A DNA stretch of 64,000 bases from a plasmid. Positions 5,111 through 59,449 of this stretch are shown piece after piece (the first letter of the stretch is position 1; every line of letters starts with the position of its first letter). The DNA lies in sequence record NZ_CP088995.1. One strand, 5' to 3'. The notes beneath the pieces were generated by a model. That model was not told the origin of the DNA, did not search any database, and saw only the letters and a program-made list of their open reading frames with translations. A program made the position numbers and the translations under genes.

Positions 5111-6391
<1,281 letters not shown>

Positions 6392-13955: not shown

Positions 13956-13970
13956 GGTAATGACTCCAAT

Positions 13971-14474
13971 TTACTGATAGTGTTTTATGTTCAGATAGTG
14001 CCCGATGACTTTGTCATGCAGCTCCACCGATTTTGAGAACGACAGGGACTTCCTGCCCAGCCTTGCCAGATGCTGTCTCAGATTCAGGTTGTGTCGCTCA
14101 ATTCGCTGCGTGTAACGCTTACTGATGACGTGCAGTTTTCCCTTCAGACGTGACTCATACATCGGCCAGCCGTCCGTCATCCATACCACCACGTCAAAAA
14201 CTGACAGCAGGCTCAGAAGACGCTCCAGTGTGGCCATAGTGCGTTCACCGAAAACGTGGGCTACCACCGCCCTGCGTATCCTGTCATACGCGTAAAACAG
14301 CCAGCGCTGACGTGATTTTGCACCGACGTAGCCCCATTGCTCGTCCATCTCCGCACAGACAATGACATCACTGCCCGGCTGTATCCGGGAGGTTACTGAC
14401 TGCGGCCTGAGTTTTTTAAATGGCGCAAAATGGTGTTGAGGCCCACGCCCATTAGTCGTGCGGTGGCACGGCAA
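13971..14474 (-). CDS. insB: IS1 InsB (expressed as an InsAB' fusion by -1 frameshifting)
   Basis: Canonical InsB sequence. Confidence 0.9.
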
Positions 14475-14668
14475 CCGACGCCGTTCATAGCCATATCAAT
14501 GATTTTCTGGTGTGTACCGGGCTGAGAAGCGGCATAAGTGAAGGTGAGCTGCCATGTTTTACGGCAGTGAGAGCAGAGATAACGTTGATGCCCGGCAGTA
14601 CTTTTGCCATTACGCATCACGCCTTCAGTAGCGGAACAGGAGGGACAGCAGACGGAGACTGAAGCCAC
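14393..14668 (-). CDS. insA: IS1 InsA
   Basis: [40 protein letters not shown]…. Confidence 0.9.
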
Positions 14669-14923
14669 GGGAGCACCTCAAAAACACCATTATACACTAA
14701 ATCAGCAAGTTGGTAGCATCACCATGTTTTCATACTGGCGTGTATGCCACATTATTAGCATTTTGCGAATAAAAATAACTGGCATAATTGTATTTAATGA
14801 TAATGTTACATATTGTTAGCCAGGTTCCGGAAAGCGAGAACCGGAACCGCACCTGTCCAGCCGGTATTCCCGTCGATGACCCTCGCTTTTTACTGATTTG
14901 TGCCCGACTGAGAAGTCGGTAAC

Positions 14924-15946
14924 TCAGTTTCGGAATCGGCGCAGATGAGTTTCGGGAACAAAATAAATGTTGCCGCGCGCCCGTGAGCATGCCACGTACA
15001 GCCTGTTACGGGACGACGGTGGAAGGGTTGCCAGTTCCTGACGGGTCAGAAGCTTCCAGTGGGAGGATCCCATCACAATGCAGACATCCTGAAAGTGATC
15101 GAGCCCTTTACTGGCGCCCCAGTTCATGGAATAGCAGCCGTAACGGTGATGTTCACGATAGAAGAGCTTAATCACCGTATTATCGGCGTGCAGGGTGGCT
15201 GAGCGCTCTGTATCTGCGATCGTTTCAATCAGGGAGGCATGTATCCCATGGGCAGCGATACGGATGTTCAGTTGCCCGGTGATAAACTCGCACACTGAAG
15301 CTGAGCAACGCCATGTCCGGTTGAGCGTGTCCCGGTCAACCGCGAAACCTGCTGCGTCGAAGCGGGCCTCATATCGCGTGATGTCGTCGTGCAGCGTTGA
15401 ATTAACGTTGCCGTCATGGCTTGTATCAAAGGTATGCTGATAAAAATCGCCGCAACAGAGCACAGTGATTTCCGCGCGGCAGAGCTCCAGCAGAAAATTA
15501 AAGTCATGTCCGGCAAAGTCCTGGACTTCATCGACAAGCAGTTCATCATAGTAACGGGCAAGCCGGATACGGATATCCGGCAGCAACCCCCGGGCTGTCA
15601 GTAAATGTGCGAGCCTCCGGTGATACAGCCGTCCGGCGGGATCCTGATAATGCCGGGCATTCGTGCGCGGTATTCTGGGTGGGGGCTGGTCGAAGCTCAG
15701 GCCACGCGATGCCAGCTGCTCCTGCAGGAAAGGCCGGAAGCAAAAACCGTGCAGAAACTCAAACCAGGTCATCACCCTGATCCCTTCCGGGATAAAGCCA
15801 AAACGTCTGATAATCTGTGCCCGCAGATGCGCTTCATTATTCACGGTGAAGGTCAGGAGCAGCGTCCTCCTGTCCTCACTCAACCGTCGTATCAGCAGCG
15901 TGGTCTTGCCCGAGCCGGCAACCGCAAATATCACTCTCTTATCCAT
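14924..15946 (-). CDS. Compact UvrD/PcrA-like superfamily 1 helicase (340 aa; GajB-like partner of the OLD nuclease)
   Basis: Walker A AVAGSGKTT, motif II LLVDEVQDF, motif VI LYVACSRARGNIY. Translationally coupled to the upstream OLD gene. Confidence 0.7.
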   Translation of the reverse strand: MDKRVIFAVAGSGKTTLLIRRLSEDRRTLLLTFTVNNEAHLRAQIIRRFGFIPEGIRVMTWFEFLHGFCFRPFLQEQLASRGLSFDQPPPRIPRTNARHYQDPAGRLYHRRLAHLLTARGLLPDIRIRLARYYDELLVDEVQDFAGHDFNFLLELCRAEITVLCCGDFYQHTFDTSHDGNVNSTLHDDITRYEARFDAAGFAVDRDTLNRTWRCSASVCEFITGQLNIRIAAHGIHASLIETIADTERSATLHADNTVIKLFYREHHRYGCYSMNWGASKGLDHFQDVCIVMGSSHWKLLTRQELATLPPSSRNRLYVACSRARGNIYFVPETHLRRFRN

Positions 15947-17493
15947 GCCAGTGCCTCCTGAATATAATCAGGTACGGTCAGCTCTCCGGCGTGCAGCTGT
16001 AACAGCCGGAATGCTGCTTCTGCCTTATTGGCCAGCATGTATTCCTGCACCGTGAGTGTCCGGCGGGGTCCGCGGAAAAGCGTATCACACAGATCAGCGT
16101 TATCCTGATACAGGCTGATTTCAAATGTGGATCGGGTGTTATCGCGATCAGCAAATACCCGGGAGCGGGAACAAATCACGTCAGCATAGCGTTCATCGCA
16201 GTTTTGCTGATAGTTGCCGTCATTATCACGAAGGGCCGCGACGCGATTTTCCAGAAGACGGGCCAGTTCAAGATAACGACGGAAACTCGTTCCGCCGATA
16301 GCGATGATGTGAACTCCGTCTTCCTCCGGTGCCCTGCCATACAGGCGGCGATAAAAGGCCTCGATCAGAATAAACTCAGCATCCCCCTCCACGAGCAGCA
16401 CACGTCTGGCCAGCGCAAATTCCAGTACGTTATTATCCGGTGCTTTCATGAAGAAGGCGGCAGTCTCAGCGGAAAGTTCATTCATCAGTACCGGCCGGGC
16501 AGACCCGAGGAGGATTGCCTTACGCAGATCGAGGCGGGAGGAGATATGGCTGCTGTGTGTGGCAATAAACACCTGCGTCTGCCGTTCAGTGGCAAGCTGA
16601 TTAACCAGCCTCTTCATACTGACATGGCTGAGATGATTTTCCGGCTCCTCAAGCAACAGTACGTGGAGCTCTCCCTGCTGCTGATGCCGCTGCAGCGCAA
16701 ACTCCGTTTTGATGAAGCACTGCCTTCCTTTTCCACGGTGACGAATGGAAATACCGTCCTCGGTAATGTCCAGATTCGCCTCAAGCCCTGATTTAGCACC
16801 GGAACGCACGCCAAACTGATACGTTTCCAGCGTGTCGTTTATGGCTGACAGATGCCGGGTGCAGAAGTGCATTTTCTGTTGCCGGTAACTGTTTTCAAGC
16901 CGGTACCGATCGGCCACCGGCACATTGACGCTGTAAACTGTGCGCGTATATTCCTGTGCGGCGTGCTCGTTATCGATGCGTGCACTGTCTAAGAGCAGAT
17001 GGCGCAGATAGCGTCTGAAGCTGGCGAAATGACCACCGGAGAAGGTGCTGAACCGCACGGAATAGTATTCATAGGGAAAATTATCGGGATCCTGCTGTAG
17101 TACATTGTGAATATCCTGGCCGTATTCCTCCGTCATTGGTGCAATACGCATTCTGAGACCATCCGCATTGATACCCGCCAGATTTTGCCTGCCGTTCAGG
17201 TCAGGATCTCCCCCATTACTCAGGAAAACGTCAGCTGTCAGCACGGGTAACTGATCGGCGCGGCGCTCACCTTCCTGAAACTGCCTTACTGCTGACTGGG
17301 ACAGGAGCGATTCCACACCCAATGCCTCGACCCGGTGCCGGCTGTCACTCAGCACAAGGTCAAGGGCCAGCAGAATCGTGCTTTTCCCGGACTCATTGTC
17401 CCCGACCAGAATGTTACGGTCATGAGTGAAGCGCAGGTCCAGTTCCGGAAACTTTTTAAAGTTTTGCAGCATAAGCCGCGTGATCAGAGGCAT
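15931..17493 (-). CDS. OLD-family ATP-dependent endonuclease (520 aa), with an N-terminal ABC-type ATPase and a C-terminal Toprim nuclease domain. GajA-like, class 2 OLD.
   Basis: Walker A GDNESGKST; ATHSSH signature/H-loop region; Toprim motifs LLVEGDAEF and DNDG. The gene overlaps the downstream helicase gene by 16 nt. Confidence 0.75.
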   Translation of the reverse strand: MPLITRLMLQNFKKFPELDLRFTHDRNILVGDNESGKSTILLALDLVLSDSRHRVEALGVESLLSQSAVRQFQEGERRADQLPVLTADVFLSNGGDPDLNGRQNLAGINADGLRMRIAPMTEEYGQDIHNVLQQDPDNFPYEYYSVRFSTFSGGHFASFRRYLRHLLLDSARIDNEHAAQEYTRTVYSVNVPVADRYRLENSYRQQKMHFCTRHLSAINDTLETYQFGVRSGAKSGLEANLDITEDGISIRHRGKGRQCFIKTEFALQRHQQQGELHVLLLEEPENHLSHVSMKRLVNQLATERQTQVFIATHSSHISSRLDLRKAILLGSARPVLMNELSAETAAFFMKAPDNNVLEFALARRVLLVEGDAEFILIEAFYRRLYGRAPEEDGVHIIAIGGTSFRRYLELARLLENRVAALRDNDGNYQQNCDERYADVICSRSRVFADRDNTRSTFEISLYQDNADLCDTLFRGPRRTLTVQEYMLANKAEAAFRLLQLHAGELTVPDYIQEALAWIRE

Positions 17494-17566
17494 CTTTTAT
17501 TCCTTTATATACCGCTGACTGAAAGAGTGTCCGGCTGCGCCAGACCGCCTGTTTTGTTTTACAGCG

Positions 17567-17983
17567 TTATCTTACCCAGTCTTCCAGCACAAGACCCGGT
17601 ACCCGCTCAAATTCCCGCGTATTATTCGTCACCAGCACGGCACCGGCGGCGATGGCGTGCCCGGCAATGGCCGTGTCGTTCGGGCCGATCGGCGTCCCGG
17701 CCATTCGCAGCGCCACCTTAATCTCCGTGGTGGCGTCCACCGCAGCGCGATCCCAGGGCAGGATGGCATCGAGGCGGGCGCAGAACGCGTCGACCAGCTC
17801 GACGTGGCGCGGGGAGGCCTTCGGGCCGGTGGCCCCGAAGCGCATTTCAGAATAAGTGATGGCCGAGACAACGATGCGCTGGCCGCGCAGCACCGCCTGC
17901 TCCAGGCGCTTCAGGACGGCTTCCGGCTGCTCGCGCATGATGAACGAGCAGATACAGGTGTCGAGCATATAGGTCTTGTTCAC
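17567..17983 (-). CDS. vapC: PIN-domain toxin VapC (VagD)
   Basis: MNKTYMLDTCICSFIMREQPEAVLKRLEQ… gives the PIN acidic residues D8, E42, D99 and D117 (sequence numbering). Confidence 0.85.
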   Translation of the reverse strand: MNKTYMLDTCICSFIMREQPEAVLKRLEQAVLRGQRIVVSAITYSEMRFGATGPKASPRHVELVDAFCARLDAILPWDRAAVDATTEIKVALRMAGTPIGPNDTAIAGHAIAAGAVLVTNNTREFERVPGLVLEDWVR

Positions 17984-18213
17984 AGGTTAAATCGTCCTTC
18001 GTCGCTGACAACGTCCTCGCGCTCCGCCATAAAGTCCGGGTCTGCCTTCTCGAACTGCGCGAACGAGCCCCAGGTCGGCCGGACGGGACGCAAAATAATG
18101 CTGTCCCCTTCCCGGACGATCTCCAGCTCGCTCACTCCCTCAAAATCCAGATCGCGGGGCAGACGAATGGCGCGGTTATTGCCGTTTTTAAAAATGGATA
18201 CAGTTCTCATCAT
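17980..18213 (-). CDS. vapB: Antitoxin VapB (VagC)
   Basis: 77-aa SpoVT/AbrB-like protein that overlaps vapC by 4 nt. Confidence 0.8.
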   Translation of the reverse strand: MMRTVSIFKNGNNRAIRLPRDLDFEGVSELEIVREGDSIILRPVRPTWGSFAQFEKADPDFMAEREDVVSDEGRFNL

Positions 18214-18239
18214 TTCCTCCTGGCCGACCGGCCTGTATG

Positions 18240-18360
18240 ACTATGTTCAGTATATGCAGATGCAAAGCATATGTATAGTCATAGCATATGCAGATGGTAA
18301 GTATATGCGTATGCCACACCTATGCAGATGCCCGGCATATGGATATGTTGAACCTATGTT
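18240..18360. repeat. Cluster of short direct repeats upstream of vapB. TATGCAGATG occurs x3 and GCATATG x4, with inverted GACTATG/CATAGTC. Probably the vapBC promoter/operator.
   Basis: Repeats sit immediately 5' of vapB on the minus strand. Confidence 0.4.
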
Positions 18361-18788
18361 GTATTCTCTCTTTTCCCGGTCAGATCCGAAAAAAGCTAGT
18401 TCCGGATCTGCCGGAACGGCTCCGGCGCGCAGCGGCCCGGCAACACAAGATGTAGCGGTGTTCCCAGCTGAGGATGACGCTATATGTTGTGTCCCTCCCC
18501 TCCCCCGTGACCGGCCGCTCACCACCGGAAAACGCCGCTTTGCTTATTCCCTGACCGTGGTACACTTCCGGAAAGTTGTTATACGCAAAAAAATCGGATC
18601 TGCCGGAAACGGCCATCCGGTAATTTAGCTGCGTGACTGTTTCATGCCTTATCACGTGCTGATTTCTTCCTTTGTGTACAAAATGAATCATAACGTATAC
18701 ATTTATTGTTATAGCGGTAAATCAGGCTTCATGTTTACTTCAAAGACCATTTACCAGTCCTGAATACGTTTTGCATAAGGAAGGAGTC

Positions 18789-58629: not shown

Positions 58630-59449
58630 GGCACTGTTGCAAAGTTAGCGATGAGGCAGCCTTTTGTCTTATTCAAAGGCCTTACATTTCAAAAACTCTG
58701 CTTACCAGGCGCATTTCGCCCAGGGGATCACCATAATAAAATGCTGAGGCCTGGCCTTTGCGTAGTGCACGCATCACCTCAATACCTTTGATGGTGGCGT
58801 AAGCCGTCTTCATGGATTTAAATCCCAGCGTGGCGCCGATTATCCGTTTCAGTTTGCCATGATCGCATTCAATCACGTTGTTCCGGTACTTAATCTGTCG
58901 GTGTTCAACGTCAGACGGGCACCGGCCTTCGCGTTTGAGCAGAGCAAGCGCGCGACCATAGGCGGGCGCTTTATCCGTGTTGATGAATCGCGGGATCTGC
59001 CACTTCTTCACGTTGTTGAGGATTTTACCCAGAAACCGGTATGCAGCTTTGCTGTTACGACGGGAGGAGAGATAAAAATCGACAGTGCGGCCCCGGCTGT
59101 CGACGGCCCGGTACAGATACGCCCAGCGGCCATTGACCTTCACGTAGGTTTCATCCATGTGCCACGGGCAAAGATCGGAAGGGTTACGCCAGTACCAGCG
59201 CAGCCGTTTTTCCATTTCAGGCGCATAACGCTGAACCCAGCGGTAAATCGTGGAGTGATCGACATTCACTCCGCGTTCAGCCAGCATCTCCTGCAGCTCA
59301 CGGTAACTGATGCCGTATTTGCAGTACCAGCGTACGGCCCACAGAATGATGTCACGCTGAAAATGCCGGCCTTTGAATGGGTTCATGTGCAGCTCCATCA
59401 GCAAAAGGGGATGATAAGTTTATCACCACCGACTATTTGCAACAGTGCC
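58630..59449 (-). mobile_element. IS26, copy 2 (820 bp, same orientation as copy 1). No target duplication (flanks GACAATAA / CGGGAAAC).
   Basis: Exact IRs at 58630-58643 and 59436-59449. Confidence 0.95.
58682..59386 (-). CDS. tnp26: IS26 transposase Tnp26
   Basis: Identical to the copy 1 protein. Confidence 0.95.
   Translation of the reverse strand: MNPFKGRHFQRDIILWAVRWYCKYGISYRELQEMLAERGVNVDHSTIYRWVQRYAPEMEKRLRWYWRNPSDLCPWHMDETYVKVNGRWAYLYRAVDSRGRTVDFYLSSRRNSKAAYRFLGKILNNVKKWQIPRFINTDKAPAYGRALALLKREGRCPSDVEHRQIKYRNNVIECDHGKLKRIIGATLGFKSMKTAYATIKGIEVMRALRKGQASAFYYGDPLGEMRLVSRVFEM

Follow-up and report, generated by a model that had tools for sequence, protein, structure and literature searches.

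A probable compact Gabija-type (class 2 OLD) gene pair beside vapBC on enterobacterial plasmids

Introduction

Do two overlapping genes that lie directly behind the toxin–antitoxin (TA) genes vapBC on plasmid NZ_CP088995.1 form an intact defense system, and does vapBC belong to it? The DNA analyzed is a 64,000-nt window of this plasmid, and all coordinates given below are window positions unless another sequence is named. An initial interpretation made from the letters of the window alone (the sequence-only reading) had proposed that the two genes are the pair found in Gabija (GajA/GajB) and class 2 OLD loci, namely an OLD-family ATPase-Toprim nuclease followed by a UvrD-like helicase, and that they join with vapBC in a larger module. 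In the literature, class 2 OLD is equated with Gabija (PMC12796447). We judge it likely that the two genes constitute an intact Gabija-type defense system of a compact subtype, and the full-length matches to the PADLOC models for GajA and GajB, the predicted OLD and superfamily 1A (SF1A) folds, and the pairing of the two genes in every locus sampled all bear out the initial family assignment.

Results

Two coupled genes

The gajA-like gene (positions 15931–17493, minus strand) encodes a 520-aa class 2 OLD protein, in which an ABC-type ATPase (approximately residues 1–355) precedes a Toprim nuclease (approximately residues 356–520). The gajB-like gene (14924–15946, minus strand) encodes a 340-aa compact SF1A (UvrD/Rep-type) ATPase. 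As had been proposed, the genes share 16 nt, and both the coordinates and the sequence of the overlap confirm this (15931–15946, minus strand; ATGGATAAGAGAGTGA). Within these nucleotides the gajA frame ends with WIRE and a stop codon, while the gajB frame opens with MDKRV. An AGGAGG Shine–Dalgarno sequence is located 8 nt upstream of the gajB ATG. With this overlap and the internal Shine–Dalgarno sequence, translation of gajA and gajB is predicted to be coupled. Both open reading frames (ORFs) are real genes, as indicated by their Pfam domains, by thousands of homologs of constant length, and by ratios of nonsynonymous to synonymous substitution (dN/dS) of 0.08–0.13 over these two genes and vapBC.

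The OLD nuclease

The 520-aa protein carries the motifs GDNESGKST (residues 31–39) and ATHSSH (residues 311–316), the Toprim glutamate E369 (LLVEGDAE), and D423-N-D425. Searches with profile hidden Markov models (HMMs) from Pfam and PADLOC recover the expected domains and both full-length Gabija proteins. Pfam identifies AAA_15 (6e-19) and OLD-like_TOPRIM (4e-17), and the PADLOC GajA model PDLC00102 matches residues 4–517 of 520 at 1.3e-102. Other PADLOC GajA subfamily models match at 1e-33 to 1e-25 and outscore the P2 Old model (1.5e-19). The AriA, PtuA, and retron models match the N-terminal P-loop region alone.

Six elements are invariant in 30 homologs: Walker A K37, EEPE at residues 282–285, H313, and the Toprim residues E369, D423, and D425. 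E369 aligns with the catalytic E379 of Bacillus cereus GajA. On this evidence, the protein is predicted to be an ABC-ATPase/Toprim nuclease with its catalytic residues intact. An AlphaFold2 model of the protein has a mean predicted local distance difference test (pLDDT) score of 83.

The compact helicase

The 340-aa protein contains AVAGSGKTT (residues 8–16), VDEVQD (residues 138–143), and VACSRAR (within residues 317–325), and thus every motif that the sequence-only reading quoted for the two proteins could be located. Further helicase motifs are present as well: Ia (TFTVNN), III (GDFYQHTFD), IV (TWRC), and V (NWGASKGLDH). All of the SF1 motifs (I, Ia, II, III, IV, V, and VI) are conserved across the helicase family. 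Pfam detects weak N-terminal similarity to UvrD and Viral_helicase1 alone, while the PADLOC GajB model PDLC00148, a 369-position profile, matches residues 1–330 at 1.3e-46.

The predicted structure of the helicase (pLDDT 88.8) has an SF1A fold. Only 64 residues separate motif IV from motif V, and because the model fills this interval with core 2A elements alone, the 2B subdomain appears to be absent. The 1B-equivalent insert is likewise reduced in the model, to approximately 60 residues (∼75–134). For comparison, two inserts are described in B. cereus GajB, one 1B-like (residues 73–155) and one Cacc/2B-like of 103 aa (residues 314–416) (PMC10681800). By the model, the protein of the window is a UvrD/Rep-like SF1 ATPase cut down to two RecA-like motor domains.

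The short helicase had been taken initially as a sign of a minimal variant. This is borne out, but as a trait of the entire clade and not as a truncation. Word-indexed and exhaustive HMMER searches found thousands of homologs in many phyla, with essentially all full-length members at 333–385 aa, and the length of the OLD partner is also constant at ∼520 aa. The possibility that the ORF is a fragment of a longer gene was rejected on the basis of this constant length and the end-to-end PADLOC matches.

In B. cereus, GajA is bound by the 1A/1B portion of GajB, and the C-terminal region of GajB does not bind (PMC10822852). Since the contacts of B. cereus GajA are made with 1A/1B, and these parts are retained here, the loss of 2B need not prevent a GajA–GajB complex from forming. 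A motor core that lacks 2B could serve as a convenient minimal model for learning what GajB adds to Gabija.

Comparison with known systems

One of the closest known systems is the Gabija of B. cereus VD045 (GajA 578 aa, GajB 494 aa; PDB 8sm3, 8j4t, 8tk1), which is likewise a two-gene operon encoding an OLD ABC-ATPase/Toprim protein and then a UvrD-like SF1 ATPase. The nucleases of the two systems share the Walker A lysine, the EEPE Walker B motif, the H-loop histidine, the Toprim glutamate, and the DxD motif. In contrast, the GajA-like protein of the window is ∼60 aa shorter, chiefly in its Toprim/C-terminal part, and the helicase is 154 aa shorter than B. cereus GajB, with 1B reduced and the 2B element (Cacc, 314–416) missing. 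The four subdomains (1A, 1B, 2A, and 2B) of the solved B. cereus GajB are therefore not all found here, although this architecture is a trait of the studied example and not a formal criterion for the family.

Two pairs of PADLOC subfamilies also fit. PDLC00102 and PDLC00098 (GajA, ∼532 positions) match over their full length at 1e-102 and 3.5e-91, and PDLC00148 and PDLC00140 (GajB, ∼365–369 positions) do so at 1e-46 and 1e-41. By these profile matches, the pair is assigned to a short subtype that is already catalogued in PADLOC, with no difference at the family level.

The arrangement also agrees with the operational definition of class 2 OLD, in that an SF1 helicase gene follows immediately downstream in the same operon. 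Class 2 OLD genes of Burkholderia pseudomallei and Xanthomonas campestris are similarly in tandem with a gene for a UvrD/PcrA/Rep-like helicase (Schiltz et al. 2019; PDB 6njv). A profile of the family matches the Toprim region of the X. campestris protein at 5.8e-4, a remote relationship at the sequence level, and only the C-terminal catalytic regions have been solved in that group. The Gabija system of Pseudomonas aeruginosa PA14, located on the PAPI-1 island, is another nuclease–helicase pair on a conjugative element, and its function depends on both genes and on their catalytic residues (PMC12407980). Motif II of the PA14 GajB is DESQ, whereas the clade described here has DEVQ.

Other OLD classes and other helicases fit less well. 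Class 1 OLD proteins, such as phage P2 Old and the Thermus scotoductus protein (6p74), have the same ATPase-Toprim fold, but class 1 genes stand alone, whereas here a helicase gene is coupled to the OLD gene in 80 of 80 loci. Assignment to class 1 was rejected on these grounds. Class 3/4 OLD systems are marked either by an adjacent reverse transcriptase/msr-msd (retron-associated) or by an ATPase and a DUF4435 Toprim protein that are split (PARIS AriA/AriB). They were also rejected, as the ATPase and Toprim domains are fused in one protein here and no third gene recurs. Finally, the housekeeping SF1A helicases Rep and UvrD of Escherichia coli and their relative PcrA differ from the helicase of the window in having 630–720 aa, full 1B and 2B subdomains, proven unwinding activity, and no OLD partner.

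Synteny across the family

The synteny sample consists of these 80 loci, each from a different species, and spans Proteobacteria, Bacteroidota, Acidobacteriota, Verrucomicrobiota, Firmicutes (one Sporomusa genome), and Cyanobacteria (one metagenome-assembled genome). The OLD gene is directly upstream of the helicase gene in every locus. In 79 loci, the distance from an in-frame ATG or GTG to the end of the OLD stop codon is exactly 16 nt. A conserved third gene was sought and rejected, because the largest cluster of neighboring genes is present in only 10 of the 80 loci, all from Pseudomonas.

The contexts of the pair vary and are often mobile. For example, the pair resides on plasmid backbones in Serratia and Nissabacter. 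On the chromosome of Dickeya dianthicola (locus L087, 4454–12870), a pair with 76% helicase identity is part of an AlpA/primase-like island, and a complete type I restriction–modification system (hsdR, hsdM, hsdS) follows directly downstream, which is a defense-island context. Given the invariant pairing, the nearly invariant overlap, the lack of a third gene, and the variable mobile surroundings, the pair bears the synteny signature of a self-contained, mobile two-gene defense system.

vapBC and the 3.5-kb cassette

The gene vapB (vagC; 17980–18213, minus strand) encodes a 77-aa AbrB/MazE-type antitoxin that matches Pfam MazE_antitoxin and the NCBIfam model TA_anti_VapB (94.5 bits, above the cut-off of 60). 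It overlaps by 4 nt the gene vapC (vagD; 17567–17983, minus strand), whose 138-aa product is a PIN-domain toxin (Pfam PIN, 8.5e-15) related to tRNA(fMet)-specific VapC endonucleases. VapC scores 121 and 108 bits with NCBIfam VapC models, which is under their equivalog/subfamily cut-offs. A MazE-type antitoxin gene that overlaps a PIN toxin gene is the arrangement of a type II VapBC system. The gene coordinates agree with the initial description of vapBC as lying directly upstream of the pair on the same strand, across a 73-bp gap.

This spacer (17494–17566, minus strand) includes an AAGGA ribosome-binding site. Its sequence is 90% identical between the alleles of IncR and IncF plasmids, and its ends are perfectly conserved. 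The sequence-only reading placed a probable promoter within the gap, but a scan for sigma-70-like promoters found none there at its threshold, and that proposal is unsupported. By eye, a TATATA/TATAAA box can be seen in the spacer, although its closeness to the ribosome-binding site makes a promoter at this place doubtful. A scan for terminators in the spacer was also negative. Because the spacer has no detected terminator, transcription that reads through from vapB is no less likely than initiation at a promoter in the gap, and it is plausible that the pair is cotranscribed with vapBC from the vapB promoter.

The region upstream of vapB (18214–18388, minus strand) is inside the conserved cassette and contains a weak promoter-like site at 18277–18249, as detected by the scan. 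Three direct repeats of CATCTGCATA are present at 18261–18337 (minus strand) with a spacing of exactly 34 bp and with CATATGC motifs interspersed. Most of the array is preserved in the IncF allele of E. coli, and it probably serves as the vapB promoter/operator region.

Plasmids of E. coli (ColV-type and FIA plasmids of the IncF group) carry vapB, vapC, gajA, and gajB in an identical layout. The homology between the IncR and IncF plasmids forms a single blastn block of 3.5 kb at 14886–18388 with 88% identity, and the flanks are unrelated. This block extends from 38 bp past the gajB stop codon to ∼175 bp upstream of vapB, and it defines a four-gene cassette on the minus strand that IncR plasmids of Klebsiella have in common with IncF plasmids of E. 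coli. A comparison of these alleles gives dN/dS values of 0.08 for vapB, 0.12 for vapC, 0.12 for gajA, and 0.13 for gajB, which indicate purifying selection on all four genes. When the window (14924–18213) is compared with the E. coli cassette of locus L083 (6999–10289), dS is 0.205 for gajA versus 0.45–0.57 for vapB, vapC, and gajB. Because gajA differs from the other three genes in this way, the cassette may have a mosaic history with recombination inside it.

Beyond this cassette, the association does not persist. In the synteny sample, vapBC is upstream of the pair in only two of 80 loci, both of which are near-identical Enterobacter plasmid copies, and it is absent from the nearest relatives outside the cassette, which share 68–79% protein identity. 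We therefore rejected the idea that vapBC is a conserved component. Since it is missing from all of the more distant loci, vapBC is best described from these gene neighborhoods as a lineage-specific neighbor outside the system proper. Thus, the module of TA genes plus nuclease and helicase that had been proposed stands as a co-inherited cassette of enterobacterial plasmids, but not as a conserved partnership beyond them. In published work, Gabija is enriched on plasmids and occurs with VapBC in E. coli plasmids (PMC12853721; bioRxiv 10.1101/2022.08.21.504612). Wu et al. had already noted that Gabija and tmn are found together with TA systems, VapBC among them, close to the leading region of E. 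coli plasmids (bioRxiv 10.1101/2022.08.21.504612).

Plasmid context

The window is 100% identical to pKP048-like IncFII/IncR KPC-2 plasmids (NC_014312 and others). On an IncR-only plasmid the order is IS1, gajB, gajA, vapC, vapB, six hypothetical genes, resD, two small hypothetical genes, repB, parAB, and umuCD, and the pair is ∼6.5 kb from the sole annotated replication initiation gene. Published lists of the IncR backbone name vagCD, resD, repB, parAB, umuCD, and retA, and leave the OLD/helicase pair unmentioned (PMC7707992, PMC12310702). The sequence-only reading put the pair inside an accessory segment bounded by IS26. This description is misleading, because 52 kb lie between the nearest IS26 copies (5572–6391 and 58630–59449), and this interval includes the IncR replicon and maintenance genes. 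The pair is instead at the end of the IncR backbone segment that carries vagCD, where it abuts IS1.

Prevalence and annotation

Among 72,556 plasmids in PLSDB, 2,270 match the pair, 1,565 of them over at least 80% of its length and 1,374 at an identity of at least 99%. Approximately 30% of the matching plasmids carry fragments alone, either truncated or interrupted by insertion sequences, and often what remains is the 5′ 690 nt of gajA. In some plasmids an IS26 copy is inserted inside the gajA/gajB stretch, as in NZ_CP129848.1 (23032–27560). The gajAB system is thus often lost or inactivated on plasmids. In complete E. coli genomes, the pair occurs in 769 of 5,426 (14%), and 778 of the 788 copies are plasmid-borne.

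The exact proteins are present on at least 1,000 contigs, where they are named "AAA family ATPase," "OLD family endonuclease," or "helicase UvrD." The compact pair is not unusual, because HMMs for the short subtype already exist in PADLOC and copies of the locus are extremely frequent. It is an ordinary, widespread, and under-annotated member of a known family. The cassette is found on about 2%–3% of catalogued plasmids, including KPC IncFII/IncR plasmids of Klebsiella and ColV-type plasmids. If the system is active, it would have a bearing on the choice of phages for therapy against KPC-carrying Klebsiella and could affect plasmid ecology. What novelty remains resides in the 2B-less clade, which possibly works unlike canonical Gabija, and in the possibility that expression is tied to vapBC on clinical plasmids.

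Discussion

Is the pair a Gabija system?

Several observations weigh against the assignment to Gabija or at least make it less certain. A Foldseek search with the GajA-like model retrieves the Thermus class 1 OLD protein (6p74, 1.4e-16) about as well as it retrieves B. cereus GajA (8sm3_A, 1.2e-15), and identity in the structural alignments with B. cereus Gabija is only ∼14%. At the sequence level, similarity to B. cereus GajA is remote (1.3e-10) and confined to residues 266–409, and this match is lost when the family profile is used to search PDB sequences. The GajB-like protein has no PDB sequence match at all, its family profile likewise does not recover B. cereus GajB, and it lacks the 2B subdomain that B. 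cereus GajB has.

In the literature we found no experimental test of the compact subtype, and no described experimental representative was found for the short-subtype models of PADLOC. Tested Gabija systems (B. cereus VD045, PA14, and ECOR49) apparently belong to other subtypes. PA14 and ECOR49 were considered as members of the clade but appear to lie outside it, because PA14 GajB has the DESQ form of motif II and ECOR49 GajA has K35/H317 in place of K37/H313. Lastly, almost all copies of the pair in Enterobacteriaceae are on plasmids, beside maintenance genes, which would also fit a role centered on the plasmid.

If the pair does act as a Gabija system, then anti-phage activity can be proposed by analogy, with mechanistic steps borrowed from the B. 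cereus and Pseudomonas PA14 systems (PMC10822852, PMC12407980). The pair would be inherited with vapBC at the end of the IncR backbone and probably cotranscribed with it. GajA and GajB would form a complex. In B. cereus this complex is a 4:4 assembly, in which the GajA ATPase domain contacts GajB 1A/1B. Nucleotide-bound GajA would be kept inactive. The trigger might be nucleotide depletion or the presence of linear DNA ends to which phage proteins deny RecBCD access. Upon infection, the Toprim nuclease would nick or cleave the invading DNA, and GajB would hydrolyze NTPs or dNTPs on the resulting DNA ends. The host of the plasmid, and hence the plasmid, would thereby be protected from phages and possibly from other incoming DNA.

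Alternative explanations

The plasmid-borne distribution raises the alternative that the pair mainly serves the plasmid, either by acting against competing plasmids and other incoming DNA or by promoting stability as part of a maintenance block of TA, resolvase, rep, and par genes. Nearly all E. coli copies (778 of 788) are indeed on plasmids, and on IncR as well as IncFIA plasmids the cassette has TA, resD, rep, and par genes as neighbors. Moreover, Wu et al. suggest that plasmid Gabija fends off competing mobile elements (bioRxiv 10.1101/2022.08.21.504612), and PA14 Gabija is reported to restrict transduced plasmids when licensing proteins are present. However, the same two-gene unit is present on chromosomes of many phyla, where its surroundings are unrelated and contain no plasmid genes, and one chromosomal copy adjoins a type I restriction–modification system. 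The pair is also not required for plasmid maintenance, since ∼30% of carriers hold fragments alone and IncR plasmids persist without vagCD (PMC7707992). We consider a chiefly plasmid-serving role unlikely. A decaying or nonfunctional remnant carried along by the backbone is highly improbable. Many plasmids do have truncated or interrupted copies, and the helicase is much smaller than characterized GajB proteins, but in the window both ORFs are intact and reach the full length of a family whose size is constant, all of the catalytic residues are invariant, and dN/dS is ∼0.12.

The cassette itself suggests another alternative, in which vapBC and gajAB are one integrated system, with VapB/VapBC autoregulation of a single operon setting the expression of Gabija or with VapC as a back-up abortive effector. 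In its favor, the four genes are inherited as one 3.5-kb block that is 88% identical between IncR and IncF plasmids and includes ∼175 bp upstream of vapB, and all four genes are under purifying selection. The spacer has neither a terminator nor a promoter detected by the scans, and at 90% it is conserved above the synonymous sites of vapB, vapC, and gajB (dS 0.45–0.57). Set against these points, vapBC is absent from 78 of the 80 loci and from the nearest noncassette relatives, vapBC (vagCD) is a common stand-alone plasmid TA system of which a second copy is nearby in E. coli, and the divergent dS of gajA suggests a mosaic history. We consider an integrated system unlikely. We give a similarly small chance to the most elaborate version, wherein the 2B-less clade would be a mechanistically distinct Gabija variant and, in enterobacterial plasmids, would have been joined to the vapBC operon, with VapBC autoregulation gating nuclease expression and the four genes acting together as a defense/addiction module that benefits the plasmid. 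If this were true, the four genes would be among the commonest and least recognized modules on carbapenemase (IncR/IncFII) and ColV virulence plasmids. A compact Gabija-type system with vapBC as its neighbor is the reading that we prefer.

Neighboring features

An IS1 copy (13956–14723) was recognized by its terminal repeat, its annotated transposase, and blastn. It is context and not a part of the system, and its end is 201 bp from the gajB stop codon on the downstream side. In the E. coli allele, an oppositely oriented IS1 element likewise follows gajB at a distance of ∼200 bp, and IS1 junctions appear to recur here. In the window, the cassette boundary is separated from the IS1 end by 162 bp (14724–14885) that are not common to the E. 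coli allele and contain the inverted repeat GGTTCCGG...CCGGAACC.

In E. coli plasmid pMS1050-1 (L083, 10676–12814), a gene divergent from the cassette encodes a 712-aa ATPase. This neighbor was considered as tmn and rejected, as it matches the PADLOC candidate PDC-S06 (2.7e-286). Behind this gene come another vapBC pair, a gene for a RES-domain toxin, and ccdAB, which together make up a small TA/defense cluster adjoining the IncFIA replicon.

On the plus strand of the window, a 323-aa ORF (17657–18628) runs across vapC and vapB as well as their promoter region. In public records, the 3′ portion of this ORF has an annotated hypothetical protein of 153 aa (WP_014343465.1), which overlaps the 5′ end of vapB and is probably a spurious call.

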